Source: Verrucomicrobiota bacterium (GTDB lineage Bacteria; Verrucomicrobiota; Verrucomicrobiia; Limisphaerales; UBA9464). Taken from it: a stretch of 33,758 bases of DNA. The translations under genes were made by a program, and so were the position numbers. The notes beneath the pieces are model-generated. The model was not told where the DNA came from, made no database searches, and worked only from the letters and a program-made list of their open reading frames with translations. The stretch is taken from positions 1-33,758 of the forward strand of contig JBJSZF010000199.1 in NCBI GenBank assembly GCA_046090125.1, read 5' to 3'. Shown here piece by piece: positions 1 to 25,719 of this stretch; position 1 is the first letter of the stretch, and each line of letters starts with the position of its first letter.

Positions 1-1728
1 GCTCCCCTCACTTCTTCACCGCAATCCGATGCGGCTGCCGGAGGACGATCCGGCCCTGGTGCGGCTGGAGGAAGATTTGGCGGTCCTCCCGGCGGGGTGC
101 AGCCGGACCGCAAGCTGCTCAAGCAGTTCGACAAGGATGGGAACAAGAAGCTGGACGCGCTGGAGCGGGACGCCGCGCGCGAGTTCCTGGCGAAGGAGGC
201 GGCGAGCGGTGGTGGTCCGCAACGACGCGGGCCGGGCCGCGGGGGCTTTGGGCCGGGCGGCCCGCGCCGGGAGAATGCCACGCCGCCCAAGCCGGGACCC
301 AGGGTGTCGCCGGCCGACGCGACGTCGCACGCGGGCAAGCCGCTGTATGACCCCGGGGTGTTGCGGACGTTGTTCCTGACGTTCGAGAGCCCGGACTGGG
401 AGAAGGAACTGGAGGCGTTCCATGGCTCGGACGTGGAGGTGCCGGCCAAGCTGCTGGTGGATGGCAAGACCTACGAGGACGTGGGCGTTCACTTCCGCGG
501 GAACTCGTCCTACAACATGGTGGGAACGGGCCAGAAGCGGTCGTTGAATCTCTCGTTGGACGCGTTCAAGGAGGGGCAGGCGATCGACGGCTTCCGGACG
601 TTGAACCTGTTGAACAGCCACGAGGACCCGAGCTTCCTGCGTGCGGTGCTGTACTGCGACGTGGCGCGGCAATACGTGCCCGCCCCGCGCGCGAACCTCG
701 TGAAGCTGGTGATCAACGGCGAGTCGTGGGGCATCTACGCGAACGTCGAGCAGTTCAACAAGGACTTCGCCCAGCAGCACTTCAAGGCGGCCAAGGCGGC
801 TCGGTGGAAGGTGCCCGGGTCGCCCAACGCGAAGGGCGGGCTCGAGTACCTGGGCGACGACGCGGCGCCGTACAAGAAGATCTACGACCTCAAGAGCAAG
901 GAGGACCCCAAGGCGTGGTCGGACCTGGTCCAGTTGTGCAAGGTCTTGAACCAAACGCCGACGGAACAGTTGGAGAAGGCGTTGGAGCCGATCCTGGACG
1001 TCGAGGGCGCGCTGCGCTTTCTCGCGTTGGAGAACGCGTTGGTGAACAACGACGGGTACTGGGTGCGCGCGAGCGACTACGTCCTGTGCCAGGACGGGCA
1101 AGGGAAGTTCCACGTGTTGCCGGGCGACACGAACGAGGGCTTCACGCGCGCGGGTCGGCCCGGTGGGCCGGGCGGTCCGGGCGGACGACGGCGCGGTCCC
1201 GGTGGCGGCGGGTGGGATGGCCCGGGCGGTCCCGGTGGCCCTGGAGGCCCTGGAGGGCCGGGAGGTCCCGGAGGCCCGGGAGGTCCGGGCGGCGCGACCA
1301 GTCCTGTTCAACCGGGACAGCCGGGAGGGCCTGCGGGACCGATGGGTCCCGGCGGCGGGCGGGGCGGGATGGGGGTTGAGCTGGACCCGCTGGTGTCCGC
1401 GAAGGACACGACGAAGCCCTTGTTGTCCAAGCTGCTGGCGGTGCCGGCCTTGCGGGAGCGTTACCTGGCGTTGGTGCGCGAGATTGCGGAGAAGCACCTG
1501 GACTGGGCGAAGCTGGGCCCGGTGGCGCAGCGGTATCATGACCTGATTGCGGCGGAGGTGCGCGTGGACACGCGGAAGCTGGACTCGACGGAGGCGTTTG
1601 AGACGAGCCTGACGCAGGACCACGCTGGAACGGGGTTTGGGCCCGGGGGCGGTGGAACGATTGGGTTGAAGAACTTTGCGGACCAGCGCCGGGCGTTCCT
1701 GCTGGGGAAGATCCCGGCGAAGCCCTGA
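1..1728 (+). CDS. CotH-family kinase-like protein with an EF-hand-like loop and Gly/Pro-rich inserts; 5' end probably outside the window
   Basis: Frame 1 is open from base 1. CotH-type motifs [43 protein letters not shown] and [10 protein letters not shown]-hand-like [13 protein letters not shown]. (GGP)n insert at ~1156-1375. Confidence 0.8.
1156..1375 (+). repeat. Intragenic 9-bp-period tandem repeat encoding (GGP)n
   Basis: ggcccgggc-ggtcccggt-ggccctgga-ggccctgga-gggccggga-ggtcccgga..., with synonymous variation between units. Confidence 0.85.
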
Positions 1729-9431: not shown

Positions 9432-10979
<1,548 letters not shown>

Positions 10980-11063
10980 GAGGTGCGGCCGCCACGGCGA
11001 CGCGCGCTCCCATTCAAGGCCACGCGGCCGCGCGGGCAAGATTGCATTTCCGCGGGAACGGCA

Positions 11064-13357: not shown

Positions 13358-14869
13358 CTACGGCCTTTCCCCAGCGGCTTCTTCTCGTGACTTCATGGGC
13401 TGGACCTCCCCCGGGAACAGGTCCGGAACGATGAGGTGCAGGCCGTTGCGCTCGTGGCCGAGGTCCGGCGACCAGTACATCTCGTGCGCGCGGATCCCCA
13501 GCAGGGTCAACGCCCCAAACCACGTCAGGCGTCCCTCCACCGCGCCCTCGCGGAAGGCATGCTCCCGGTCCGGGCCACGTCCCAGCGTGTCCGGCGTCCC
13601 ATGCACCGGAGCCAGCCGGACCTGCCCGGGCTCGGGGGGCCCCGGGTTGAACTCGGTCGCCAGCACGTCCACCGGCGAGAACACGTTCGCCCATGTCCTG
13701 AGCGGCCGTTTCACGTGGCAACGCCCCGCGTAGTAGCCCGGCCAATAGGTGAGGATGAAGGCCACCGGGCACCCGATCGTGACCAGCGTGTCCACCCGCT
13801 CCAGTCGGCGGGCGCGGAGGTTGTCCGCCGGGAAGAGCACGTCGAGGGCGACGATGCTCCCGAAGCTATACCCCATGAGGCCCACGCGCTCGTAGCCCTC
13901 CTCCTCCTCGAGCAACCGCTCCACGTGCTCGTCCACCATTCCGGTCACCTCCGCCCGGCGGTCGCCCAGCCCGAAGTAAAACACGAACGCGAGCATTTCC
14001 TCGGACATGCGGGTGATCCAGGCGACGAGGGCCGACCGGTCGCGCGCGAGCAGTTGCCGGGCGAGGACGAGGCTTGCGACGAGCCCCGCCCAGACGTAGC
14101 CGCCGCTCCAGCCGCGCCACAGGGACTCCCAGCCCCACTCGGAGGGGTCGGCCGATGGCCCCCGGATGCCCGGCGACGGTGGGACTGACGAAGGCAAATT
14201 GCGGGCGGGCGCGCCCGCGTTGGTACCCAGTTGGACGTCCCACGTCTCGGTGGCTGCATGGGGCCGAATCGCACGACGGGACGCCTCGGCAGCCGCCGTG
14301 GACGACGGCGACGATGACGACGACGCGGCGGTTGCGGCCGGGGTGGCGGCGCCGGGCGTGGCGAGGCCCGACGCTAGGCGCGCGGCCGAGAGGACCAGGA
14401 CGGCAAGATAGGCCAGCACGAGGGCCATCCCGCCCAGGACGATAAAGGTTTGGAACACCTCCTGCCGCGTGGCGCGGCGCGGGCGGCGGCCGAGCAGGTG
14501 CAAGCCGTGGCGCCGAGCCAGCTCCAGGGCCCCCACCGCCGCCAGCAGGCATCGCGTCAGCAGCACGCGCCCCCGATGCCGGGCCAGCAACGTGTCGCGA
14601 TAGTCCACCATGTACACGTCGGCGACCGGTTGGGGCTTCGGGTTGCTGGGGCTGCGGCGCAGGATCCGGCAAAACGACCGGGGCCCGCCGGGCGCGTCGC
14701 GCAGGGCGAGGACGGACTCGTAGCGGCTGGGGCCATGGGACGACTGGCGGTCGAGCGCGTTGGCGAGCTTGTGGCCGAGCACGTCGAGCTCGTTGTTGCG
14801 GCGCACGCCCAGGGGCGGCAGGTACAACAAGGCAAACGGGGCGCGCAGGGAGGACGCTGTGTCCGGCAT
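13358..14869 (-). CDS. Membrane-anchored alpha/beta-hydrolase (lipase-like) hypothetical protein
   Basis: Hydrophobic segments, then GYSFG nucleophile elbow, LVTIGCP, WANVFSPVDVL (Asp) and AHEMYW (His). Confidence 0.65.
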   Translation of the reverse strand: MPDTASSLRAPFALLYLPPLGVRRNNELDVLGHKLANALDRQSSHGPSRYESVLALRDAPGGPRSFCRILRRSPSNPKPQPVADVYMVDYRDTLLARHRGRVLLTRCLLAAVGALELARRHGLHLLGRRPRRATRQEVFQTFIVLGGMALVLAYLAVLVLSAARLASGLATPGAATPAATAASSSSSPSSTAAAEASRRAIRPHAATETWDVQLGTNAGAPARNLPSSVPPSPGIRGPSADPSEWGWESLWRGWSGGYVWAGLVASLVLARQLLARDRSALVAWITRMSEEMLAFVFYFGLGDRRAEVTGMVDEHVERLLEEEEGYERVGLMGYSFGSIVALDVLFPADNLRARRLERVDTLVTIGCPVAFILTYWPGYYAGRCHVKRPLRTWANVFSPVDVLATEFNPGPPEPGQVRLAPVHGTPDTLGRGPDREHAFREGAVEGRLTWFGALTLLGIRAHEMYWSPDLGHERNGLHLIVPDLFPGEVQPMKSREEAAGERP

Positions 14870-15050
14870 GAACGGGTTCAACCAAACCCCTCGCCTGGGT
14901 TCAAGCATGGACCCAGTCCGCACGATGATTCACGGGGCGCCTTGGAGCCGCGGATGGACGCGCGTGGGGCGCCGATGCCGGGAGAACCCTTCCCCGCCTG
15001 CAAGATTTCGGTGACGGCGCGATGCTGGGCTTGAAACAAACGCCGGTTTT

Positions 15051-15998
15051 TCAGGGGGAACGGCGCAGGAGGGCCTGGCCCATGCGGACGCGCGCGCCGG
15101 GCTGGATGGCCGGGCAGGGCTTGAAGCCTTTCGGCACGAACAGAACGATGGTGGAGCCGTGCTCGAACCACCCGAGTTCCTCGCCCCTCCGGACGGGGTG
15201 TTGGCAGGGGATGACGTTGGGCCCGCGCCATCGGAGGTGAAGCAGGACGTCCAGGAAGTGCAGGCGAACCGACGCCACGAGGATGGCCGCCACGGCGACC
15301 ATCGCGGCGGGGCGCCCGTCAGGCAGGCGCATCCGGACCACCACGCGCTCGTTGCGGCAGAACAACCGCTCGACGCGGCGGAGGGCAATGGGGTTCACGT
15401 TCCAGGTGTCCCCGCTCACGTAGGTCACGCCCTCGATCCGGCCATCGTCGGGCGCATGGAAGCGGTGGTACATCGACGACGTGAGCCGGAGCGTGACGAA
15501 GAGGCCGTCGCGGAAGGGGGCGGCGGTGGCGGCATCCCCCATCAGCTCCTCGATGGAATAGGGGAACCCCTTGGCCTGGAACACCTCGGTCCCGCGCGCC
15601 TCGCCCATCGCGCCCACGATGCCATCGCAGGGGCTCGTCAGGACGGAGGGGTCTGGGTCCACGGGCCGCGCCCCGGGCTTCAGCTCGCGGGTGAAGCAGT
15701 CGTGGAGGCTGTCGAAGCGTGGATGGCGGGCCTCGGAGAGGTCGAGGTCGGTGAACAGGCGCCACAGGGCGATGGCGCCCTGGGCGAACGTGCGGGAGCG
15801 CACCTGGCTCACGCGGCCCATGAGGCGCGTGAGGAGGATGCGGGGCACGCGGTTGGTGAGCAGGAAGTTGAGGTCCTCCTGCAAGAGGAGGCGGTCGCGC
15901 CATGCGCGGAGGGGGCCGGGGCTGGCGCCGCGCGGGGCTGCGGGGGGCGAGGACGGGGGGGGCATGGGCGACGGGGCGGGTGAGGTGGACGTTTTCAT
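15051..15998 (-). CDS. psd: Phosphatidylserine decarboxylase-family proenzyme (variant HGST cleavage motif)
   Basis: CFTRELKPGARP, SPCDG, QAKGFPYS, MYHRFHAP, LFCRNERV, GEELGWFEHGSTIV. Start is 15998 or 15965. Confidence 0.9.
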   Translation of the reverse strand: MKTSTSPAPSPMPPPSSPPAAPRGASPGPLRAWRDRLLLQEDLNFLLTNRVPRILLTRLMGRVSQVRSRTFAQGAIALWRLFTDLDLSEARHPRFDSLHDCFTRELKPGARPVDPDPSVLTSPCDGIVGAMGEARGTEVFQAKGFPYSIEELMGDAATAAPFRDGLFVTLRLTSSMYHRFHAPDDGRIEGVTYVSGDTWNVNPIALRRVERLFCRNERVVVRMRLPDGRPAAMVAVAAILVASVRLHFLDVLLHLRWRGPNVIPCQHPVRRGEELGWFEHGSTIVLFVPKGFKPCPAIQPGARVRMGQALLRRSP

Positions 15999-17676
15999 GA
16001 ATGCATCCAGCGCATGGTGGTTAGGGTTGGCTCCGGGGTTGGCCTTGGCGTGGAAGGGCTACCGCCGGCTCCAGCTCTCGTGGGCGAAGCATCCGTCGTT
16101 GGCGGGCCATTCCAAGTGGGCGGGACGGGTGGCGCGCCTGCTGCCGGGCTACTCGTTCGGCGAGGAACGGTTCTTCGACGCGGACGGGGCGGACGCCGTG
16201 CTGGCGTCGCGTCGCAGGGCTGGGTTTGAGCGGCTTGCGGGCGAGCTGGCACGGCGTCATGCACGAACGGTGGCCCTGACGTCCGAGGCGGCGGCGCACG
16301 TGTCGGACATGCAGTTCACCAAGGCGTACCGCGTGCCCTTTCCGTTCAGCCGCCACGTGCGCGAGCGGCTGCGGCTGGGCGGGTTCGTGGACGGGTCCGA
16401 CGGCGTGACGTTGCGGGACCTGGACGGGGAGACGTTCATCGACGTGACGGGGTCGTATGGGGTGAACGTGATGGGGCACGAGTTCTACAAGTCGTGCATG
16501 GAGGAGGCGGCGCGGCGGGTGGCGGGCATGGGGGTGGTGCTGGGGTCGTTGCATCCGTGCGTGGCATGGAACGCGGCGGAGCTGTGCCGGATCTCGGGCA
16601 AGGACGAGGTGTCGTTCCACATGTCGGGGACGGAGGCGGTGATGCAGGCGGTGCGGCTGGCCCGGTACCACACGCGGCGGACGCACGTGGTGCGGTTCTG
16701 CGGCGCGTATCATGGATGGTGGGACGACGTGCAGCCCGGCCCTGGGAATCCCTCGCGCCCCGGGAAGGTTTACACGTTGAAGGAGATGGACGCGGCGACG
16801 CTGCGGGTGCTTGGGACGCGCCGGGACATTGCCTGCGTGCTGGTGAACCCGTTGCAGGCGCTGCACCCGAACCGTCCGGCCCCGGGCGACTCCACGCTGG
16901 TGGATGGCACGCGTCGCGCGGGGTTCGACCGGGGGGCCTACGCGGCGTGGCTCCAACGGCTGCGCGAGGTGTGCACGCGACGGGGCATCGTGCTGGTGTT
17001 CGACGAGGTGTTCCTTGGGTTCCGCCTCGCGCCGGGCGGTGCGCAGGGATACTTCGGGGTGCAGGCGGACCTCGTCACGTATGGGAAGACCCTGGGGGGC
17101 GGGTTGCCCGTGGGCGTGGTGTGCGGCAGGCGGGACCTGATGCGCCGGTTCCGCGAGGATCGGCCGGCGGACATCTGCTTCGCGCGGGGCACGTTCAACT
17201 CGCACCCGTTGGTGATGGCGTCGATGCAGGTGTTCCTGGAACGGCTGCAAACGCCCGCCGTCCGTGCGCTGTACGAGGGCCTCGACGAACGCTGGCAAGG
17301 CCGTGCCCGGCGGATGAACGAGCGGCTCCGGCAGGAGGGCCACCCGGTGCGCGTGGAGGCGATGTCCACCGTCTGGACGGTCCTGTATGACGTGGCGTCT
17401 CGGTATCACTGGATGCTTCAGTTCTACCTGCGGGCGGAGGGGCTGGCCCTGTCGTGGGTCGGGAGCGGCCGGATGGTGTTCAGCCTGGACTTCACGGACG
17501 CCCAGTTTGACGAGGTCACGGAACGGTTTGCACGGGCGTGCCGACGCATGCGCGACGACGGGTGGTGGACGGCGCCCCCGGGCCTGACGCACCGGGCCAT
17601 CCGAAGGCGCCTTCTCGTCGAGATGAGGACGGCCCTGCTGCGGCGCTGGGCCGGGAATCGGCCCGCCACCCACTAG
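15997..17676 (+). CDS. Class-III PLP aminotransferase (GSA-aminomutase-like fold) with a hydrophobic N-terminus
   Basis: FIDVTGSYG, SGTEAVMQAVRLAR, GAYHGW, LVFDEVFLGFR, TYGKTLGGG (PLP Lys), GTFNSHP. Confidence 0.9.
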   Translation: MNASSAWWLGLAPGLALAWKGYRRLQLSWAKHPSLAGHSKWAGRVARLLPGYSFGEERFFDADGADAVLASRRRAGFERLAGELARRHARTVALTSEAAAHVSDMQFTKAYRVPFPFSRHVRERLRLGGFVDGSDGVTLRDLDGETFIDVTGSYGVNVMGHEFYKSCMEEAARRVAGMGVVLGSLHPCVAWNAAELCRISGKDEVSFHMSGTEAVMQAVRLARYHTRRTHVVRFCGAYHGWWDDVQPGPGNPSRPGKVYTLKEMDAATLRVLGTRRDIACVLVNPLQALHPNRPAPGDSTLVDGTRRAGFDRGAYAAWLQRLREVCTRRGIVLVFDEVFLGFRLAPGGAQGYFGVQADLVTYGKTLGGGLPVGVVCGRRDLMRRFREDRPADICFARGTFNSHPLVMASMQVFLERLQTPAVRALYEGLDERWQGRARRMNERLRQEGHPVRVEAMSTVWTVLYDVASRYHWMLQFYLRAEGLALSWVGSGRMVFSLDFTDAQFDEVTERFARACRRMRDDGWWTAPPGLTHRAIRRRLLVEMRTALLRRWAGNRPATH

Positions 17677-18317
17677 CGCCCGTTGGCCTTGGCCTCTCGG
17701 ACGTCGTCCATGGGGTCGATCCACTGGCCGCGCGCGAGGGCGAGGGGCGCGCGCCAGTACAGCAGGATGTCATGGAAGGGGTCCGTGATGATCTTGGACA
17801 TCCACACGAGCCCCGTGAGGACGTCCTTGATGAAGAAGAGGTGAACGGTGCGGAACACGAGGCCGCCGAGGCCGACGTAGAGCCACACGAGGCCGAGGTT
17901 ATGGACGAGGCCCCATGCGTCCCTGGGCTCTGGGAGCAACCCGAGGAAGGACGGGCTCGCCCAGAGGACGAGGGGGGCCAGCGCCCAGAGCGACATGAGC
18001 ACCACCTTGCGGCGGAGGTTGTAGCCCACCTTGATGTCCTCCTTGTGCTCGTGCGTGGCCTCGTTGACGTGGTCGTAGGACTTGGGCTCGAAGAAGAAGT
18101 GGCCGGCCTGCCGGCTGGTCATCGAGACGCCCCACGCCACCAAGGCCGCCCAAGCTGGGTCGATGAACAACAGCCCGTAGGCGACGAGGAAGCTCAGGGC
18201 GCTGAGCAGGTGCAGCGACTGGTTCACGCGGCTGTGGTGGTAGTACCGATGGTCGTCCCAGCGCTGCACGCGCAGCGCCTCGAGGCATACGTCCAACCGT
18301 TCGATCAGCGATTTCAT
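17673..18317 (-). CDS. Mpo1/DUF962-like integral membrane protein
   Basis: YYHHSRVNQSLH and RQAGHFFFEP match the Y-H-x3-N-x3-H and Q-x-G-H-x2-F-E pattern. Four to five TM segments. AAGGAAGG upstream of the ATG at 18317. Confidence 0.7.
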   Translation of the reverse strand: MKSLIERLDVCLEALRVQRWDDHRYYHHSRVNQSLHLLSALSFLVAYGLLFIDPAWAALVAWGVSMTSRQAGHFFFEPKSYDHVNEATHEHKEDIKVGYNLRRKVVLMSLWALAPLVLWASPSFLGLLPEPRDAWGLVHNLGLVWLYVGLGGLVFRTVHLFFIKDVLTGLVWMSKIITDPFHDILLYWRAPLALARGQWIDPMDDVREAKANGR

Positions 18318-18517
18318 GGGATGCTTGCTTCCTTCCTTCGTGGTCACGGGGGACTCAACCGTCGCCGCCGCCGTCCCAAGACGGCGCCTGCTCGGTTGGC
18401 TTCCCTGTCTCCCCATCACGCACGGCTCGTGTGAAGCCCGCGTGTCGCCGCCGTTTCGATACCGGAATATTGGAGGGCCGACACCGTGCCGTTGCCGCCG
18501 GGTGCCACGATCGATGG

Positions 18518-19789
18518 ATGCCTTCGCCCCTCCCGTCGCCCGGCACGGCGCTGCACGTCTCCGTCGTGACCGAGACCTACCCGCCCGAGATCAACGGCGT
18601 CGCCATCACCGTGGCGCGCCTCGTCCGCGGCCTGCGCGCCGACGGGCATGCCGTCACCGTCACGCGCCCATGGCAAAGCGGGGACCACGCCGCGCCGCAC
18701 GCCCCAGCAACAGCGGCGGGCGCGGACGTCCTGACGCGTGGGATTCCCATCCCGCGCTATCCCGGGCTGAAGGCGGGCTTGCCCTGCGGAAGGCGTCTCC
18801 GTCGCTTGTGGCGCGAGCAACGGCCGGACGTGGTGCACGTGGCGACCGAGGGACCGTTGGGATGGTCAGCCGTCCAAGCGGCACGAGCCTTGTCGATCCC
18901 CTGCGTGTCCGAGTTCCGGACGAACTTCCACGCCTACAGCGAGCATTACGGGATCGGCTTCCTGCGGGGCCTCGTCCTCGGCTACCTGCGCCGCTTCCAC
19001 AACCGCTGCCATGCGACCATGGCCCCCACGGACTCCCTCGCCCGCAGCCTCGCATCCGAGGGCTTCGAGCGCCTCCATGTCGTGGGGCGTGGCGTGGACA
19101 CGGGGCTCTTCAACCCGGGTCGCCGGTCCGAGGCCCTGCGTCGCTCTTGGGGCGCAGGCCCGGGGGACATCGTGGTCTTGTCGGTGGGGCGCATCGCGCC
19201 GGAGAAGAACCTCGGCCTCCTGGAACGTAGCGCTGCGGCGATCGCGGCCGCCCGGCCGGACTCGCGAATGGTCGTCGTGGGCGACGGGCCCTGCCGGGCC
19301 GCGCTTCAGGGGCGTTGGCCGTCGGCAGTGTTTGTTGGCAAGCAACGGGACGACGCCTTGGCCGCCCATTATGCATCGGGCGACCTGCTCCTCTTCCCAA
19401 GCCTGACGGAGACGTATGGAAACGTGACCCTCGAGGCGATGGCCAGCGGGTTGGGCGTGGTGGCCTTCGACTACGGGGCGGCCGCCGAGGCCATCCAGCA
19501 CGGCCGGTCTGGCTGGCTGGCGCCGCACGGCGACGCCACCGCCTTCGTCGCGGCGGCGGTTCGCGCCGCAACGCATGCCGGGGAACTCGCATGCGCGCGG
19601 ACGGCGGCGGCCGCCGAGTCCGCCCGGTTGGGCTGGGGGCGTGTCCTCGAGGACCTCGTCGCCGTCTATCGCCATGCCATCCGGGACGGGCTTCAACCGG
19701 GGCAACGGGCTCCCGCGTCCACGCCCGGCTGGACGCGGCCGGGCGCCGCGTGCGACGTCGGCACCTCCATGCCCGAGGGAACGCCATGA
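18518..19789 (+). CDS. GT4 glycosyltransferase (Agt/MgtA-like diacylglycerol glycosyltransferase)
   Basis: VTETYPPEINGVA, HVATEGPLG, FRTNFHAY, GRGVD, VGRIAPEKN, FPSLTETYGNVTLEAMASG. Confidence 0.9.
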   Translation: MPSPLPSPGTALHVSVVTETYPPEINGVAITVARLVRGLRADGHAVTVTRPWQSGDHAAPHAPATAAGADVLTRGIPIPRYPGLKAGLPCGRRLRRLWREQRPDVVHVATEGPLGWSAVQAARALSIPCVSEFRTNFHAYSEHYGIGFLRGLVLGYLRRFHNRCHATMAPTDSLARSLASEGFERLHVVGRGVDTGLFNPGRRSEALRRSWGAGPGDIVVLSVGRIAPEKNLGLLERSAAAIAAARPDSRMVVVGDGPCRAALQGRWPSAVFVGKQRDDALAAHYASGDLLLFPSLTETYGNVTLEAMASGLGVVAFDYGAAAEAIQHGRSGWLAPHGDATAFVAAAVRAATHAGELACARTAAAAESARLGWGRVLEDLVAVYRHAIRDGLQPGQRAPASTPGWTRPGAACDVGTSMPEGTP

Positions 19790-19941
19790 CAAGGGAACCG
19801 TGCTGGGGCCGGCGTCGCGCGTCGATGCCCATCGCCGCGAGATCGTCGATCCCCCTCCTTGACCCCTCCTGGGACCCGTGTTGGCCTTTGAAAAACGCGC
19901 GGTCGCGGCGTCCATCGAGGAGCCCGGCGGCGCACCTTCGG

Positions 19942-20499
19942 ATGCAAGCGCCCGTCCATGACACGCCCGCCGGAAACGCCGACGCCGTCGTCGCCCGGTT
20001 CAACCCCCTGTACCGGCCGTACCTGGTGGTCACCATTGGGTTTGCGATGGCCTGCACGGTCGTGGGCATTCCCCTCGCGGTCGCGTGGTTCTGCGGGCTT
20101 GGCCCGTGGTGGGCGCGGCACTACTTCGACAAGCTTGAGTGCCAGGTGACCGACCGCGTGCTGCGGTTCCGAAAGGGGATCCTGTTCCAGGTCGAGAAGA
20201 CGGTGCCGCTCGAGAACATCCAGGACGTCACGTTCATCGAGGGACCCCTCCTCAAGCGGTTCCACCTGGCGACGCTGAAGTTCGAGACGGCTGGGCACAG
20301 CGCGGGGCAGGCCCACGACATGCAGCTCACGGGCATCATCGACGCGCACGAGTTCCGGAACCGGATCCTCGAGCGGCGCGACGCAATGCGACATGGGACG
20401 AGGTCGGCGGATGCACAGGGGCAGGGCGAGGTGGAGCTGCTGCGGCGGATGGCGGAGCGATTGGACGAGATCGCGACGCTGCTGCGCGAACGTCGATAG
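19942..20499 (+). CDS. Bacterial PH-domain (bPH_2) membrane protein
   Basis: Two TM segments, then KGILFQVEKTVPLENIQDV..GPLLKRFHLATLKFETAG. An alternative in-frame ATG at 19786 overlaps the GT4 stop. Confidence 0.8.
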   Translation: MQAPVHDTPAGNADAVVARFNPLYRPYLVVTIGFAMACTVVGIPLAVAWFCGLGPWWARHYFDKLECQVTDRVLRFRKGILFQVEKTVPLENIQDVTFIEGPLLKRFHLATLKFETAGHSAGQAHDMQLTGIIDAHEFRNRILERRDAMRHGTRSADAQGQGEVELLRRMAERLDEIATLLRERR

Positions 20500-20552
20500 T
20501 GTGGCCCAGGCATCCTGGGCGGACTCGACACGACGGCACGCCCAAGCGGGGG

Positions 20553-21422
20553 CTAAAGGAGGCCGGCCAACTCCGGTTGGACGGGCGGCTTTCCACCAGG
20601 GTCCCCCAATCGCGCCCCCGGCGCCCGCGCCCGCTCGGGGACGTCGTTACCCAGGTCCGGCGCCTGCGACCCCTGCCCTGCCCCGACCGCGCCCCGCTCA
20701 TGATAGCGAATCAACTCGAAGGAACCGTCGAAGTGCTCCGCCAAGGCCGTGCAGCTCTCGACCCAGTCGCCGCAGTTCATGTAGGTCATGCCGTCGATCA
20801 CACGCATCTCCGCGCGATGGATGTGGCCGCAGATGATGCCGTCCACCCGGGACGTCGCCGCCAACCGACACATGCCCTCCTCAAACTGCGTCACGTACTG
20901 GACGGCGGACTTCGCCTGGAGCTTGAGGTAGGACGCCACGGACCAGTACCCGAACCCGAGCCTTCGTCGGACGCGGTTGAAGTGGAGGTTGAGGTCGAGG
21001 ATCCAGTCGTAGGCACGGCTCCCGACACGTTCCAGCAGGCGGTTGAAGTGCACCAACCCGTCGAGTTGATGGCCGTGCAACACCAGCAACCTGCGCCCGT
21101 CGGCCGTCACGTGGATCGTCCGCTCCATGAGCTGGACGCCGCCCAGGGCAAGGCCCGCGAAGCCCTCCATGAACTCGTCGTGGTTGCCATACAGGTACGT
21201 GACCCGGGTCTCCTTGCGGTTCATGCGAAGGATCTTTTGGACCACCGTGTTGGCGTCGGGGTCCCACAGCCAACGCCGCCTCAGCTCCCAGCCATCGACG
21301 ATGTCGCCGACGAGGTAGAGGTGGCGGCATTCCACGCCGCGCAGGAACTCCAGCAGCGCGCGTGACTGCGCATGGCGGCTGCCGAGGTGGACGTCTGAGA
21401 TCCAGAGCGCGCGGTATTGCAT
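20553..21422 (-). CDS. plcP: PlcP-type phospholipase C (LpxH-like metallophosphoesterase)
   Basis: YRALWISDVHLG, YLVGDIVDGW, VVQKILR, GNHDEF, LHGHQLD, GFGYWS, ICGHIH, YMNCGDWVESCTAL. Clustered with a GT4. Confidence 0.8.
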   Translation of the reverse strand: MQYRALWISDVHLGSRHAQSRALLEFLRGVECRHLYLVGDIVDGWELRRRWLWDPDANTVVQKILRMNRKETRVTYLYGNHDEFMEGFAGLALGGVQLMERTIHVTADGRRLLVLHGHQLDGLVHFNRLLERVGSRAYDWILDLNLHFNRVRRRLGFGYWSVASYLKLQAKSAVQYVTQFEEGMCRLAATSRVDGIICGHIHRAEMRVIDGMTYMNCGDWVESCTALAEHFDGSFELIRYHERGAVGAGQGSQAPDLGNDVPERARAPGARLGDPGGKPPVQPELAGLL

Positions 21423-21666
21423 GATGGCCCCGGCGTCTTGATCGCGGGACGCCTTTCCTTTCACCAACGCGAGGCGCTCCCGGCAAGGGCAGACCCAGCC
21501 CGTTTCTGGATTATCGCCCTGCCGTCACGCAGCCGCAGCATCGGGGGGGGCCGAGGGCCCGCGTCACCGGACGTTGCGTGCCCGCCATGCCGTCGTCGCG
21601 GCGTGTTTTCGGTTCCTTCACGGGCAGGCCGCCGATTTGGCAGCCATGACGAGGCCAAGATTCGGG

Positions 21667-24600
21667 GTGAAGAAAACGATGTGTTGGATTGGCTTGTGGG
21701 CATGCGCGGCGGCCGCGCACGCGCAGTTCGAGGGCTTCGTCAACCATGGCCTGGCGGGGGTGGGCCGCCTCCCGGCTGGCCTCTACGACCAGGCAGGGCC
21801 GGGACGCGACACGTTGGGGGGCCTGTTCTCCTCGATGGCCGTGGACCCATCCTCGCTTGTCTATGAAGGCGGCCAGATCCGCGGCGTGTTGTGGGGCCTG
21901 CCCGACCGCGGCTTCGGCGACGGCGCGACGGACTACCGGCCGCGCGTCCAGAAGCTGGGGTTTGGAATCACGCCGTTCCTCGGCGGCGGCACGGCGCCCG
22001 GCCAAGGGCAAATCGTGTTCACGAACCTCTCCACCGTGTTGTTCACCTACGGCGGCACGAACTTCACCGGGTTCGACGGGGGCTCCACCAACGCGCCCGT
22101 CCTCCCGCAGTCGCCGGCTGGATCCATCGGCGGCGGCCGGCTGTCGATCGACCCGGAGGGCCTCGTGCTGCTGCCGGACGGCGGCTTTTGGGTGAGCGAC
22201 GAGTACGGGCCTGCGCTCTACCGGTTCAATGCCCAGGGCGAGCTGCTGGAGACGCTCCTTCCCCCGCCCGCCCTCCTGCCCCGGAATGCGGCCGGCACCC
22301 TCAACTTCACCGGCGCCTCCGCCCCGGCCTACGGCCGCCGCAACAACCGCGGCCTCGAGGGGCTCTCCATCACGCCCGACGGCCGCCGCCTGGTCGCCGT
22401 CCTCCAAAGCCCCACCATCCAGGACGGCGGGGCCGGCAACCTCGGGCGCATGACCCGCGTGCTGCAATTCGACGTCTCCGACGGTTCCCCCACGCGCGGG
22501 CAAGTGGTGGCCGAGCACCTCTATCAGCTCACCCTGAACGGCACCGCCCAAACCAACCGCCACACGCCTGTCAGCGAGCTGCTCGTCGTCAACCCCACCA
22601 CGTTCCTCCTGCTCGAGCGCGACAGCCTCGGCCTTGGCGTGGGCACCAACACGCCGCCCTCCTTCAAGCGCGTCGTGGTCGCGTCCACCCTGGGGGCCAC
22701 CAACGTGGCCGGAGGAGCCTATGACCTCGCCCCGGGCACCCCGGGCCAGGCCAACCTCCCCGCGAACCAACCGCCCTCGGGCGTTGCTCCCCTCGCACGC
22801 AAGGACCTCATCGACCTCATCGATCCCGCCGACCTCGCGCGCTTCGGCCTCAACGTCAGCACCAACCAGGACGCCAACACGATCTCGGAGAAATGGGAGG
22901 CCCTTGGCCTTGTCCCCCTCAAGGATCCCACCCGTCCTGACGACTACCTGCTGCTCGTCGGCAACGACAACGACTTCAAGTCCCAGGTCGTCTTCCACAA
23001 CGGTGTCGCCGTCGGCACCAACGACGTCCCGGTGGACAACATGCTCCTCGCCTACCACGTGACCCTGCCGGGCGTTGGCGCGCCCGCGCCTGCCCTTTCG
23101 GCGCCCTCCGTGGCGTGGACGTTGCCCGCCACCGACCTCTACGCGGCCGGCCCCCTGACGCTGGGCGTGAGCGTGTACGACGACGATGGCCGCGTCATGA
23201 AGGCCGAGTTCCTTGAGGACGGCGTGCCGGTGGGCACCGCCACGGGTTTCCCGTTCCGCGTCACGATTCCCAACCCGGCCCCGGGGCAGCACGTGTACGT
23301 CGTGCGCGTCACGGACAACGACGGCCTCACGGCCGAGGCCACCCGCACCCTGCAAGTCACCGCCTCGAACCAGCCGCCGCAGGTCGCCGTCACCGCCCCC
23401 GCTGCCTCGCTGCGCGCCCCGGCCAACGTCGCCGCCGCCGTCTCGACGTCGGACCTCGACGGCAGCGTGGTCCAGGTGCAGTACCGCCTCGACGACGTGG
23501 CCATCCCAGCCAGCACCAACGCCCCGTTCGGCGTCACCCTTCCGTTCGTGGGCGTCGGGCCGCACCAGCTCGTCGCCGTGGCCACGGACAACCTCGGCCT
23601 CTCGTCCACGTCGGCGCCCGTGTCCTTCACCGTCCTGCGCGCCACGTCGGCCCCGCTGTCCCTGCAGGTCCTGCACGCCTCGGACTTCGAGGCCGGCATC
23701 CCGGCGCTCGACGACGCCGTCGGCTTTTCCCGCGTCCTCAACGCGCTCCGGACTGACTTCCCCACCAACACCCTCGTCCTCAGCTCCGGCGACAACTACA
23801 TCCCGGGCCCGTTCTTCACCGCCAGCGCCGACCCCGCCGCGCCCTACAACGGGGTCAAGGGCCGTGCCGACATCGCCATCCTCAACGCCCTCGGCATCCA
23901 GGTTTCCGCGGCGGGCAACCATGAGTTCGACGACAACACCGCGCAGTTTGCCTCGATGCTCCGTGCGGACGCGGCGGCGGGCTACGCCGGAACCTTGTTC
24001 CCCTATCTCAGCGCCAACCTCGACTTCAATGCGGACTCCAACACGCGCACGTTGATCACGGCGGATGCCCAGGACGCGCGCCTGGGCACCAACAAGGTCG
24101 CCCGTTCCTGCACCGTGCAGGTCGGAGGCCAGCTCGTCGGCCTCGTCGGGGCCACCACCATCGAGCTCCGCCAGATCAGCACGCCCGGCTCCATCGCCGT
24201 GTCCACCAACCTCGTGGGAACCATCCAGGCCGCCGTGGACGGCCTGCTCGCCCGCGGCTGCAACAAGGTGATTCTCCTCGCCCACCTCCAGCAGTACGCC
24301 AACGAGTTCGCCCTCGCCACCCGCCTTCGTGACGTGGACCTCATCATCGCCGGCGGCTCGCACGTCGTCTTTGCCAAGCCCTCCGACCGCCTACGGCCCG
24401 GCCAGTCGCGTGCCGAGAACTATCCCACCGCCTTCACCTCCCCGTCCGGCGAACCCGTCCACGTCGTCAATGCCGGGGCCAACTTCGAGTACGTCGGTCG
24501 ATGGATCGCCTCGTTTGACGAGGAGGGCCGCGTCGCGGTGATCGACGGCCGGAGCGGGGCCTACGCCACCGACGCCGAGGGCGTCGCCAGCACCGGGTCC

Positions 24601-25719
24601 GCTCCCGCACACCCCGCCATCACCAACATCGTCGGCAACCTCGGCGGGATCATCGACGGCAAGGACGGCCGTCGCTTCGGGCGCACCACCGTCTATCTGA
24701 ACGGCCTGCGCGCCTCCGTCCGCACGGAGGAAAGCAACCTCGGCAACCTCACCGCCGACGCCAACCTCTGGCGCGCCCAGCAGGCAGACCCAGGCACGTC
24801 CCTCTCCCTCAAGAACGGCGGCGGCATCCGTGACAGCATCGGCGGCATCCTCTCGTCGGCCGGGTCCAGCACCCCCGTCTTCATCCCGCCCCCGGCCAAC
24901 CCGCGCGTGGGCAAGCAGGCGGGCGAGGTGAGCCAGCTCGACATCGAGAACGCGCTCCGCTTCAACAACGGACTCTCGCTGCTGACCCTTACGGCGCAGC
25001 AACTGCGCGACGCCATGGAGTGGGCCGTCGCGGCCACCACCGCCACCGCCACCCCCGGGCAGTTCCCGCAGGTCTCCGGCATGTCGTTCTCCTTCGACAT
25101 TTCCCTCCCGGCCATGACCTACACCCGGTCCACCAACAACGTGATCACCGGGATCAACAACCCCGGGCAACGCCTTCGCTCCCTCGTGGCGCGGCGGGCC
25201 AACGGATCGCTGGACCTCGTCGTGGAGAACGGCGTCCTCGTGGGCGACCCTGGGCGCACCTTCCGCATGGTCACCCTCGAATTCCTCGCCACCGGCGGGG
25301 ACTCGTACTACCCGCTGTCGCTGGGCTCCGGCGTGGTCAACCTCGTGCCGGCCGGGATCCAGAAGACGTTCGACACGGACGGGGCCGAGCAGCGGGCCCT
25401 GGCCGACTACCTCCAGGTCATCGGCACGTACACCGCCGCCGACACCGGGCGGGCCCTCGATGAGCGCATCCAGAACCTTGGGTTCCGCTCCGACTCCACG
25501 CTGCGCCCCGCCATGACGTCGCTGGCTTCCGACGCCGGAGGCTCGGTCGTCTCCTTCACCACGCTGCCCGGCAAGTCCTACCGGCTGGAGTCCCAGGACC
25601 TCCTCGGCGGCGGCTGGCAGGCCGTGGGGGATGCCATCACCGGCGACGGAAGCATCCGCCAACTCGGCGACCCTTCACCCGCCGCCCCGATGCGCTTCTA
25701 TCGGGTTCGCGTTCCCTGA
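21667..25719 (+). CDS. Secreted multidomain phosphatase: phytase-like esterase domain, two Ig-like (Big) domains, 5'-nucleotidase (metallophosphoesterase + C-domain) and a C-terminal RFYRV domain
   Basis: Signal MKKT...AHA. TLGG, LPDRG, DPEG, WVSDEYGP, NNRGLEG, EKWEA, NDNDF. VTDNDG and ATDNLG Ig motifs. LHASDFE, SSGDNY, GNHEFD, AHLQQ, GGSH, NGGGIRDSI, GQFPQVSG. Start is GTG 21667 or ATG 21646. Confidence 0.88.
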   Translation: MKKTMCWIGLWACAAAAHAQFEGFVNHGLAGVGRLPAGLYDQAGPGRDTLGGLFSSMAVDPSSLVYEGGQIRGVLWGLPDRGFGDGATDYRPRVQKLGFGITPFLGGGTAPGQGQIVFTNLSTVLFTYGGTNFTGFDGGSTNAPVLPQSPAGSIGGGRLSIDPEGLVLLPDGGFWVSDEYGPALYRFNAQGELLETLLPPPALLPRNAAGTLNFTGASAPAYGRRNNRGLEGLSITPDGRRLVAVLQSPTIQDGGAGNLGRMTRVLQFDVSDGSPTRGQVVAEHLYQLTLNGTAQTNRHTPVSELLVVNPTTFLLLERDSLGLGVGTNTPPSFKRVVVASTLGATNVAGGAYDLAPGTPGQANLPANQPPSGVAPLARKDLIDLIDPADLARFGLNVSTNQDANTISEKWEALGLVPLKDPTRPDDYLLLVGNDNDFKSQVVFHNGVAVGTNDVPVDNMLLAYHVTLPGVGAPAPALSAPSVAWTLPATDLYAAGPLTLGVSVYDDDGRVMKAEFLEDGVPVGTATGFPFRVTIPNPAPGQHVYVVRVTDNDGLTAEATRTLQVTASNQPPQVAVTAPAASLRAPANVAAAVSTSDLDGSVVQVQYRLDDVAIPASTNAPFGVTLPFVGVGPHQLVAVATDNLGLSSTSAPVSFTVLRATSAPLSLQVLHASDFEAGIPALDDAVGFSRVLNALRTDFPTNTLVLSSGDNYIPGPFFTASADPAAPYNGVKGRADIAILNALGIQVSAAGNHEFDDNTAQFASMLRADAAAGYAGTLFPYLSANLDFNADSNTRTLITADAQDARLGTNKVARSCTVQVGGQLVGLVGATTIELRQISTPGSIAVSTNLVGTIQAAVDGLLARGCNKVILLAHLQQYANEFALATRLRDVDLIIAGGSHVVFAKPSDRLRPGQSRAENYPTAFTSPSGEPVHVVNAGANFEYVGRWIASFDEEGRVAVIDGRSGAYATDAEGVASTGSAPAHPAITNIVGNLGGIIDGKDGRRFGRTTVYLNGLRASVRTEESNLGNLTADANLWRAQQADPGTSLSLKNGGGIRDSIGGILSSAGSSTPVFIPPPANPRVGKQAGEVSQLDIENALRFNNGLSLLTLTAQQLRDAMEWAVAATTATATPGQFPQVSGMSFSFDISLPAMTYTRSTNNVITGINNPGQRLRSLVARRANGSLDLVVENGVLVGDPGRTFRMVTLEFLATGGDSYYPLSLGSGVVNLVPAGIQKTFDTDGAEQRALADYLQVIGTYTAADTGRALDERIQNLGFRSDSTLRPAMTSLASDAGGSVVSFTTLPGKSYRLESQDLLGGGWQAVGDAITGDGSIRQLGDPSPAAPMRFYRVRVP

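Follow-up and report, generated by a model that had tools for sequence, protein, structure and literature searches.

Introduction

When phosphate is scarce, bacteria cope in large part by exchanging their phospholipids for lipids without phosphorus, and this also alters their sensitivity to antibiotics and phages. To our knowledge, the known bacterial route for this exchange, which runs through the enzymes PlcP and Agt, stops at neutral or acidic sugar lipids. Here we analyse a stretch of 33,758 nucleotides (the window) from a Verrucomicrobiota bacterium of the lineage UBA9464 (assembly GCA_046090125.1, contig JBJSZF010000199.1, positions 1 to 33,758). At 15051-18317 it carries three adjoining genes, encoding a protein of the phosphatidylserine decarboxylase (PSD) family, a class-III aminotransferase and a small membrane protein resembling yeast Mpo1. 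Together with a neighbouring family-4 glycosyltransferase (GT4) and a PlcP-like phosphoesterase, this triad probably forms a membrane-lipid head-group tailoring module, grafted onto remodelling of the PlcP-Agt type. Such a module could make what this route lacks, an amine-bearing lipid, zwitterionic or cationic, to replace phosphatidylethanolamine.

According to passages of the papers cited here, PlcP removes phospho-head groups to leave diacylglycerol, to which a GT4 enzyme of the Agt type adds glucose or glucuronic acid (PMC13691135, PMC13700237). The same kind of source describes this remodelling in Sinorhizobium meliloti (SMc00171), SAR11, Phaeobacter, Pseudomonas aeruginosa and Burkholderia cenocepacia, the last with plcP-agt-dagK (PMC4796936, PMC13691135, PMC13700237). 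Passages on B. cenocepacia under phosphate stress report a lipid tentatively assigned as keto-glucuronosyl diacylglycerol, which agt alone did not yield in E. coli (PMC13691135); sugar lipids with an oxidised head group therefore exist. As for the relatives of the triad proteins, yeast Mpo1 is described, in the passage available, as an Fe2+-dependent dioxygenase that acts on 2-hydroxy fatty acids (PMC10398889). In E. coli PSD, the corresponding passage names Tyr137, Ser166 and the backbone of Val167 as ligands of the lipid phosphate and Asp142 as an auxiliary maturation residue (PMC7952604).

In the literature searched we found no description of this gene combination, in keeping with an earlier reading of the window made from its sequence alone (the sequence-only reading), which could match it to no described pathway. 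The searched passages of the two Burkholderia plcP-agt papers (PMC13691135, PMC13700237) name none of the three triad enzymes, and the words aminotransferase and decarboxylase do not occur in them. The PlcP-Agt frame is known, and the triad is an undescribed addition to it that is both real and widespread.

Organisation of the locus

The G+C content of the window is about 70%, and real reading frames are marked by a third-position G+C of 0.84-0.93. The following features make up the locus.

15051-15998, minus strand: psd-like gene, encoding a PSD-family pyruvoyl decarboxylase proenzyme of 315 residues (PF02666, TIGR00163)
15997-17676, plus strand: aminotransferase gene, encoding a membrane-anchored class-III pyridoxal phosphate (PLP) enzyme of 559 residues, of the glutamate-1-semialdehyde (GSA) aminomutase/aminotransferase (AMT) type (PF00202)
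17673-18317, minus strand: Mpo1/DUF962-like gene, encoding a histidine-rich helical membrane protein of 214 residues (PF06127, weak)
18453-18470, no strand: 18-nt non-coding motif GTTTCGATACCGGAATAT, in the divergent spacer between the Mpo1-like and GT4 genes
18518-19789, plus strand: lipid-type GT4 glycosyltransferase gene, divergent from the Mpo1-like gene (PF13439, PF13692, PF00534)
19942-20499, plus strand: bPH_2 (YdbS-like) small membrane protein gene (PF03703, E 4e-14)
20553-21467, minus strand: PlcP/LpxH-like calcineurin-type metallophosphoesterase gene (PF00149, PF12850)

The sequence-only reading had described the triad as three abutting genes, and the coordinates hold. One palindromic CATG (15996-15999) is common to the divergent start codons of the psd-like and aminotransferase genes, and one CTAG (17673-17676) is common to the convergent stop codons of the aminotransferase and Mpo1-like genes. 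What had been overlooked is that the strands alternate (minus, plus, minus), and the triad is therefore not one operon. An alternative ATG start of the psd-like gene at 15965 would leave a spacer of 31 bp before the aminotransferase gene. In Polynucleobacter (locus L083), which has low G+C and unambiguous open reading frame (ORF) calls, this pair is separated by 21 bp, and the 3' end of the aminotransferase gene is overlapped by the Mpo1-like gene. With spacers so small, the promoters of the triad must lie within adjoining coding sequence.

The conserved unit extends past 18317, taking in the GT4 and the PlcP/LpxH-like phosphoesterase genes, both of which the sequence-only reading had missed. 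The GT4 ORF opens with a GTG at 18431, the ATG at 18518 being the likelier start, and the phosphoesterase probably starts at M16 (position 21422). The two genes are here 764 bp and one small gene (bPH_2) apart; the latter had no tblastn match in the other loci and is not seen as part of the conserved unit.

Conservation and distribution

A scan of species genomes with an alignment of the aminotransferase relatives matched at least 597 stretches, from which 80 loci of other species were kept. About seven of these are verrucomicrobial and the rest come from Burkholderiales and other Betaproteobacteria, at 61-72% identity; cultured carriers include Rubrivivax, Variovorax, Aquincola, Pseudorhodoferax, Pelomonas and Polynucleobacter, and the availability of harmless cultured carriers makes the question directly testable. 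Such high identity across phyla argues for lateral transfer together with strong constraint.

The psd-like gene was found in 78 of the 80 loci (both misses have at most 81 nt of contig before the aminotransferase gene) and the Mpo1-like gene in 73 (six of the seven misses have at most 612 nt after it). Both flank the aminotransferase gene in 72 loci, most misses falling at contig ends. A GT4 gene adjoins in 63 loci, all four genes occur together in 62, and a PlcP-like phosphoesterase gene lies within the flanks in 30. The divergent layout of the psd-like and aminotransferase genes is retained in 75 loci; in three (L047, L062 and L071) the Mpo1-like, aminotransferase and psd-like genes share one strand, with GT4 divergent. 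Among five verrucomicrobial relatives fetched with long flanks, four have the phosphoesterase gene within a few kb, and in the closest (G002) it directly adjoins GT4.

Forty-one relatives of the window genome were also searched for the triad genes. The aminotransferase occurs at 65% identity or more in 12 of them, all from the window's own family, the order's 16 other families yielding none; three further genomes in the tally carry other class-III enzymes, at most 35% identical. The same 12 relatives have a triad-type psd gene (58-98% identity, one copy being partial at a contig end), and psd matches of 37% identity or less in other relatives are other PSD paralogues. Eleven of the 12 have the Mpo1-like gene, the contig of the twelfth stopping inside the aminotransferase gene, and the 29 relatives that lack the aminotransferase showed no close psd-like or Mpo1-like match. 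Conservation of the triad, on which the sequence-only reading had staked its proposal, is thus borne out in two phyla and by joint presence or absence among relatives.

DNA nearly identical to 14900-21600 (85-98% of sampled words) is present in freshwater, aquaculture, sediment and drinking-water metagenomes from nine studies, one of which is possibly the source of the window DNA. The verrucomicrobial lineage is widespread in fresh water. More generally, the module, carried by at least 597 species-level genomes, occurs in common freshwater bacteria (Polynucleobacter, Comamonadaceae of the Limnohabitans type, Rubrivivax and this verrucomicrobium) and also in soil bacteria.

The three triad proteins

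The psd-like and aminotransferase genes of the window are extra, non-housekeeping copies. The genome assembly (4.48 Mb in 793 contigs, 89.9% complete) contains a separate hemL, which scores 573.1 bits on TIGR00713 against an equivalog cut-off of 527.3; the window aminotransferase scores 175.5 bits on this model, below the cut-off. A second psd gene, of the short form, lies on contig C387 directly adjoining a CDP-alcohol phosphatidyltransferase gene of the pssA type. None of the four CDP-alcohol transferase matches in the genome is on the window contig, in agreement with the sequence-only reading, which had seen no phosphatidylserine synthase nearby. The same reading had asked whether the two genes might be the housekeeping psd and hemL; both a hemL and a pssA-psd pair are present elsewhere in the genome.

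The psd-like protein matches PF02666 (E 6e-60, 202.7 bits; cut-off 22) and TIGR00163 (152.7 bits; cut-off 111.75), and aligns to E. coli PSD (PDB 7CNW and 6L06) with an E-value of 2e-33, residues 47-246 being alignable. It thus shares with the E. coli enzyme membership of the family, above the curated cut-off, and retains D90, H144, H147 and S254 as D125, H178, H181 and S282. D125, H178, H181 and the G-S282-T motif are invariant in all 80 relatives. It differs in being encoded by a second copy away from pssA, and in several residues. The HGST motif (residues 280-283) in place of LGST, remarked on from the sequence alone, is a true clade marker, with His at this site in 78 of the 80 relatives. 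Tyr137, Asp142 and Ser166 of the E. coli enzyme correspond to R171, M176 and N200; neither R171 nor N200 varies in any of the 80 relatives. The phosphate-binding residues of the phosphatidylserine pocket (Tyr137 and Ser166) are therefore not kept, and the replacement of these and of Asp142 extends clade-wide.

The wider family, sampled by 81 full-length representatives, has Arg (45), Tyr (34) or Phe (2) at the Tyr137 site. Arg-type representatives mostly combine it with Met, Asn and H/Q-GST, and Tyr-type ones with Asp/Asn, Ser/Pro/Thr and L/M/F/Y-GST; His before GST occurs in none of the 34 Tyr-type representatives. HGST thus goes together with a rebuilt head-group pocket in the PSD paralogue. 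The clade-wide change of the phosphate residues offers a concrete structural hypothesis on substrate choice.

The aminotransferase matches PF00202 (E 4.5e-34, 118.2 bits; cut-off 30.5). Its N-terminus is hydrophobic (MNASSAWWLGLAPGLALAW), forming a helix that is followed by a conserved extension of about 110 residues, so that its earlier description as a class-III aminotransferase with a hydrophobic N-terminus stands. The PLP lysine, K364 in TYGKTLGGG, is shared by all 12 aligned sequences. Among solved chains the closest is the aminotransferase domain of the mycosubtilin synthase MycA (6KFM; E 1e-60, 209 bits), followed by HemL enzymes (best match 163 bits), beta-transaminases and the aminoglycoside C-6' aminotransferases GenB and NeoN. 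With both MycA AMT and HemL the enzyme shares the class-III PLP fold and the Lys in G-K-x-x-G-G-G. Unlike MycA AMT it is free-standing, with an N-terminal helix anchor and the extension of about 110 residues, and it has no carrier-protein or synthase context; unlike HemL it scores far under the HemL cut-offs, in a genome with a true hemL. By these comparisons its closest counterparts, the HemL aminomutases excepted, are enzymes that place an amine on a ketone or aldehyde of a large molecule.

The third protein had been proposed to be an Mpo1-like oxygenase with a His motif. Its likeness to PF06127 (Mpo1-like/DUF962) is weak, at E 0.003-0.004 and 17.6-18.1 bits against a gathering threshold of 24; it is also consistent, since every one of the 27 relatives gives a match at E 0.1 or lower (best 3e-5). 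The His motif is well founded: H23, H27, H36, H73, E77, K92, E93, D179 and D183 are invariant in the 27 aligned relatives, and the invariant His, Glu and Asp would fit a metal site. The AlphaFold 2 model is confident and all-helical (predicted local distance difference test 88, predicted template modelling score 0.83). Foldseek against the PDB gave no solved relative at E 0.001 or lower (best 0.99), and in a VIA-align comparison with 48,161 chains the top match, a ferritin, reached Z 4.4, below helical-bundle noise. Like yeast Mpo1, the protein is small, helical and membrane-bound and has invariant His, Glu and Asp residues, and the profile match, weak and consistent, covers the first histidine-rich helices. 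On the side of differences, it scores below the gathering threshold, and its partners (aminotransferase and GT4) suggest a head-group substrate rather than a free fatty acid.

A lineage with fused genes

In another lineage, parts of the module are joined in one protein. P0121 (1151 residues) consists of a GT4 part (28-404), an aminotransferase part (454-972, 48% identical) and an Mpo1-like part (984-1143), the last matching a hidden Markov model (HMM) of the Mpo1-like family at E 2.5e-25. Seven metagenome loci of this lineage keep the parts in this order, all on one strand; for L108 this includes a GT4 that forms a separate overlapping ORF, so that just the aminotransferase and Mpo1-like parts are fused there. 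Immediately upstream of the fused gene, L102, L106 and L107 carry a PlcP-like gene. The fusion indicates that GT4, aminotransferase and Mpo1-like protein are one functional unit, placed after a PlcP-type enzyme.

In six of the nine loci with downstream DNA, the fused gene is followed by a gene for a phospholipid N-methyltransferase of the phosphatidylethanolamine N-methyltransferase (PEMT) family (PF04191, E 6e-15), a count that overstates independence, as L105 and L108 are identical there. The gene lies at 10219-10797 in L108 and occurs also in L102, L104, L105, L107 and L109. PSD-like and PEMT-like proteins would then be alternative finishing enzymes, both drawn from the serine/ethanolamine/choline branch of phospholipid chemistry. 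A DUF3047 gene adjoins the PEMT-like gene in L103, L105-L108 and L110.

Thirteen further long proteins (P0122-P0134, 1122-1296 residues) come from Euglena, Bigelowiella and other protist transcriptomes and from some metagenomes. They combine a conserved N-terminal region of about 700 residues, which has a weak GT2 match and GT2-like atlas look-alikes, with an aminotransferase domain 39-48% identical to that of the window. Mpo1-like, PSD and GT4 parts were not found in them by HMMs of these families, and profile-profile comparison with the Mpo1-like alignment gave a probability of 0.2%. These fusions may represent an algal counterpart pathway.

Relation to PlcP-Agt remodelling

The best NCBIfam matches of the GT4 protein are lipid glycosyltransferases, all under cut-off. 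The phosphoesterase has LpxH models as its sole named relatives, at 39-46 bits against cut-offs of 134-190, and its translation shows the motifs DVH, GDIVDG, GNHDE and GHIH. No window protein matched an NCBIfam model for PlcP or Agt. A calcineurin-type phosphoesterase with metal-binding motifs thus lies by a GT4 lipid glycosyltransferase, the pairing that characterises PlcP-Agt.

The likeness to PlcP-Agt systems goes further. In the fused lineage the phosphoesterase directly precedes the GT4 part, as in plcP-agt; Burkholderiales relatives have Pho-box-like motifs (see below), and the window has a neighbour that is likely a phosphate-scavenging enzyme. The differences are that the module has three extra conserved enzymes (PSD-like, aminotransferase and Mpo1-like), that its strands alternate, that dagK was not seen, and that the window is without a recognisable Pho box.

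Regulation and expression

Pho-box-like sites were counted in relatives at 11 or more of 14 positions of the E. coli-type consensus CTGTCAT-N4-CTGTCAT. They occur in 36 of 68 Mpo1/GT4 spacers and 27 of 81 psd/aminotransferase spacers; 100 composition-matched shuffles gave on average 0.73 and 0.83 loci, and at most 4. The loci are related, so the counts denote a conserved Pho-box-like element and not independent events. Eight sites at 10 of 14 or better exist in the 33.8-kb window, none in a relevant spacer.

The window has another conserved element. The motif GTTTCGATACCGGAATAT occurs once in the 4.48-Mb genome, where only four other sites come near, each with four mismatches. Thirteen loci from about eight verrucomicrobial genomes carry it at this place, in the spacer upstream of GT4, with no or one mismatch except for one locus with three; carriers besides the window are L011, L014, L015, L016, L019, L022 and L024. 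A semi-conserved GTGTGAAG block precedes it by about 20 nt. The motif was seen in no Burkholderiales locus, and Rfam over 15800-18700 gave no family save one sub-threshold chance match inside the aminotransferase gene. GTTTCGATACCGGAATAT is a candidate operator or leader element. As the operator of a regulon it was rejected, there being no other close copy in the genome.

Metatranscriptome contigs from three studies cover parts of the psd-like, aminotransferase, Mpo1-like, GT4, bPH and PlcP-like genes; parts of the stretch have no such contig, which is not evidence of silence.

Proposed function and alternatives

The conserved triad, the non-housekeeping nature of its copies, the GT4 and PlcP-like neighbours and the fusion all support the lipid module that the sequence-only reading had proposed. 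The sequences show the identities of the genes, their intact catalytic residues, the conservation, co-occurrence and fusion, and the altered head-group pocket of the PSD paralogue. Its further suggestion, an amine-bearing and possibly phosphorus-free lipid as the product, is an inference, as are the substrates, the order of steps and control by phosphate starvation at this locus.

One may envisage the following course. The PlcP-like enzyme would strip phospho-head groups from phospholipids to give diacylglycerol, on which GT4 would put a sugar or sugar acid. The Mpo1-like protein, acting as an iron/O2 enzyme, would then convert the hydroxyl next to the carboxyl (or another head-group hydroxyl) into a carbonyl, which the membrane-anchored aminotransferase would turn into an amine. 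Finally, the PSD-like pyruvoyl enzyme would remove the carboxyl alpha to this amine. This course would yield a lipid with a primary amine and probably no phosphorus, standing in first for phosphatidylserine and then for phosphatidylethanolamine. In the sister lineage, a PEMT-like methyltransferase would take the place of the decarboxylase and methylate the amine.

Since an alpha-amino acid is what pyruvoyl decarboxylases require, the most economical route is one in which a single carbon passes from 2-hydroxy to 2-oxo to 2-amino acid and then to the amine, and this would agree with the preference of Mpo1 for 2-hydroxy acids. It is possible, and we put it forward tentatively, that the triad is a three-step converter of a lipid-bound 2-hydroxy-acid head group, by way of the oxo acid (Mpo1-like) and the amino acid (aminotransferase) to the primary amine (PSD-like), into phosphorus-free mimics of phosphatidylserine and phosphatidylethanolamine. 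If so, the module would make a new and widespread class of bacterial membrane lipids, the products of the PEMT-carrying lineage would be N-methylated, betaine-like mimics, and the fusions of Euglena, Bigelowiella and other protists could be part of a pathway in algae that is likewise undescribed.

Several points weigh against a head-group module of the PlcP-Agt type, or against parts of it. An ordinary pyranosyl glucuronide has no free hydroxyl on the carbon in question and cannot furnish the alpha-amino acid. The likeness of GT4 and phosphoesterase to Agt and PlcP comes from family profiles and gene order, and the likeness to Mpo1 is under the Pfam threshold, in a fold without a solved relative. 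The psd-like gene was not found in any of the 14 fused-lineage loci fetched, with flanks of up to 6.8 kb on the upstream and 8 kb on the downstream side (L108), and is therefore not universal to the chemistry. As the strands alternate, co-transcription is not to be assumed. The spacers of the window itself hold no E. coli-type Pho box at 10 of 14 or better, and no pstS (PF12849) was found in the 90%-complete genome, so that a local Pho motif was not derivable. The RNA contigs are compatible with expression, and DNA carry-over is also possible.

Further such points lead to the alternative that survives best, in which the triad acts on phospholipids with the phosphate kept, independently of GT4 and PlcP; for example, a hydroxy-acid head group could become a keto acid, then a phosphatidylserine analogue and then an ethanolamine analogue. 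Methyloversatilis (L092) has an isolated triad, flanked by the housekeeping genes of topoisomerase IV and of the rluD/htpG type, with neither GT4 nor a PlcP-like gene nearby, and five loci with room for an adjoining GT4 have none. Moreover, the PSD-like enzyme is of the E. coli type, with an amphipathic N-terminal region that aligns, and the Arg that replaces Tyr137 could still bind phosphate. However, three phosphate-site or auxiliary residues change together across the clade, which is unexpected for a phosphatidylserine substrate, GT4 adjoins in 63 of the 80 loci, and the GT4-aminotransferase-Mpo1-like fusion sits right behind a PlcP-like gene. We therefore regard an action on phospholipids as rather unlikely.

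It is improbable that the genes serve instead in the amino-sugar decoration of another envelope glycoconjugate (lipid A, lipopolysaccharide (LPS) core or exopolysaccharide) by the logic of the Arn (aminoarabinose) pathway, with the LpxH-like enzyme working on a lipid A precursor. Aminoarabinose is indeed made by oxidation and then transamination of a uronic acid (ArnA/ArnB), the only named matches of the phosphoesterase are LpxH models, and GT4 also scores on models of exopolysaccharide and LPS glycosyltransferases. Yet the LpxH score of 45.6 bits is far under the cut-off of 134, the best GT4 matches are lipid glycosyltransferases, and glycerolipid head groups are the substrates of the PSD and PEMT families. 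The scanned neighbourhoods also showed no flippase, no ArnT-like transferase and no gene for polysaccharide export.

That the genes are independent housekeeping paralogues, neighbours by chance with no common pathway, might be argued from the alternating strands, the lack of an operon and the ordinary housekeeping members of each family, but the comparative data come close to refuting it: across Verrucomicrobiota and Burkholderiales, 72 of the 80 loci retain gene order and orientation, presence and absence are strictly joint in the 41 genomes, and in another lineage two of the triad genes form a fusion with GT4.

Neighbouring genes

Beyond the phosphoesterase lies one large gene.

21574-25719, plus strand: phytase-like/5'-nucleotidase protein of 1381 residues

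Divergent from the PlcP-like gene, it encodes a secreted-type protein with phytase-like esterase, Ig-like and 5'-nucleotidase C-terminal domains, likely a phosphate-scavenging enzyme. The closest relative (L116) has a phytase-like protein at the same place, 95% identical.

On the other side, a protein of 521 residues (13358-14923, minus strand) with a GYSFGS motif had been called a lipase in the sequence-only reading. It has no Pfam or NCBIfam match, and its atlas look-alikes are alpha/beta hydrolases, which is a lead only. It adjoins the psd-like gene only here and in the closest relative, and was rejected as a module member on account of this restricted adjacency.

Farther away, a CotH-kinase-family protein is encoded at the start of the window (1-1728, plus strand), and a sigma-54-dependent response regulator is encoded at 9432-11039 (minus strand), upstream of the gene for homoserine dehydrogenase. 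Near the fused module in L108 there is likewise a sigma-54 activator.

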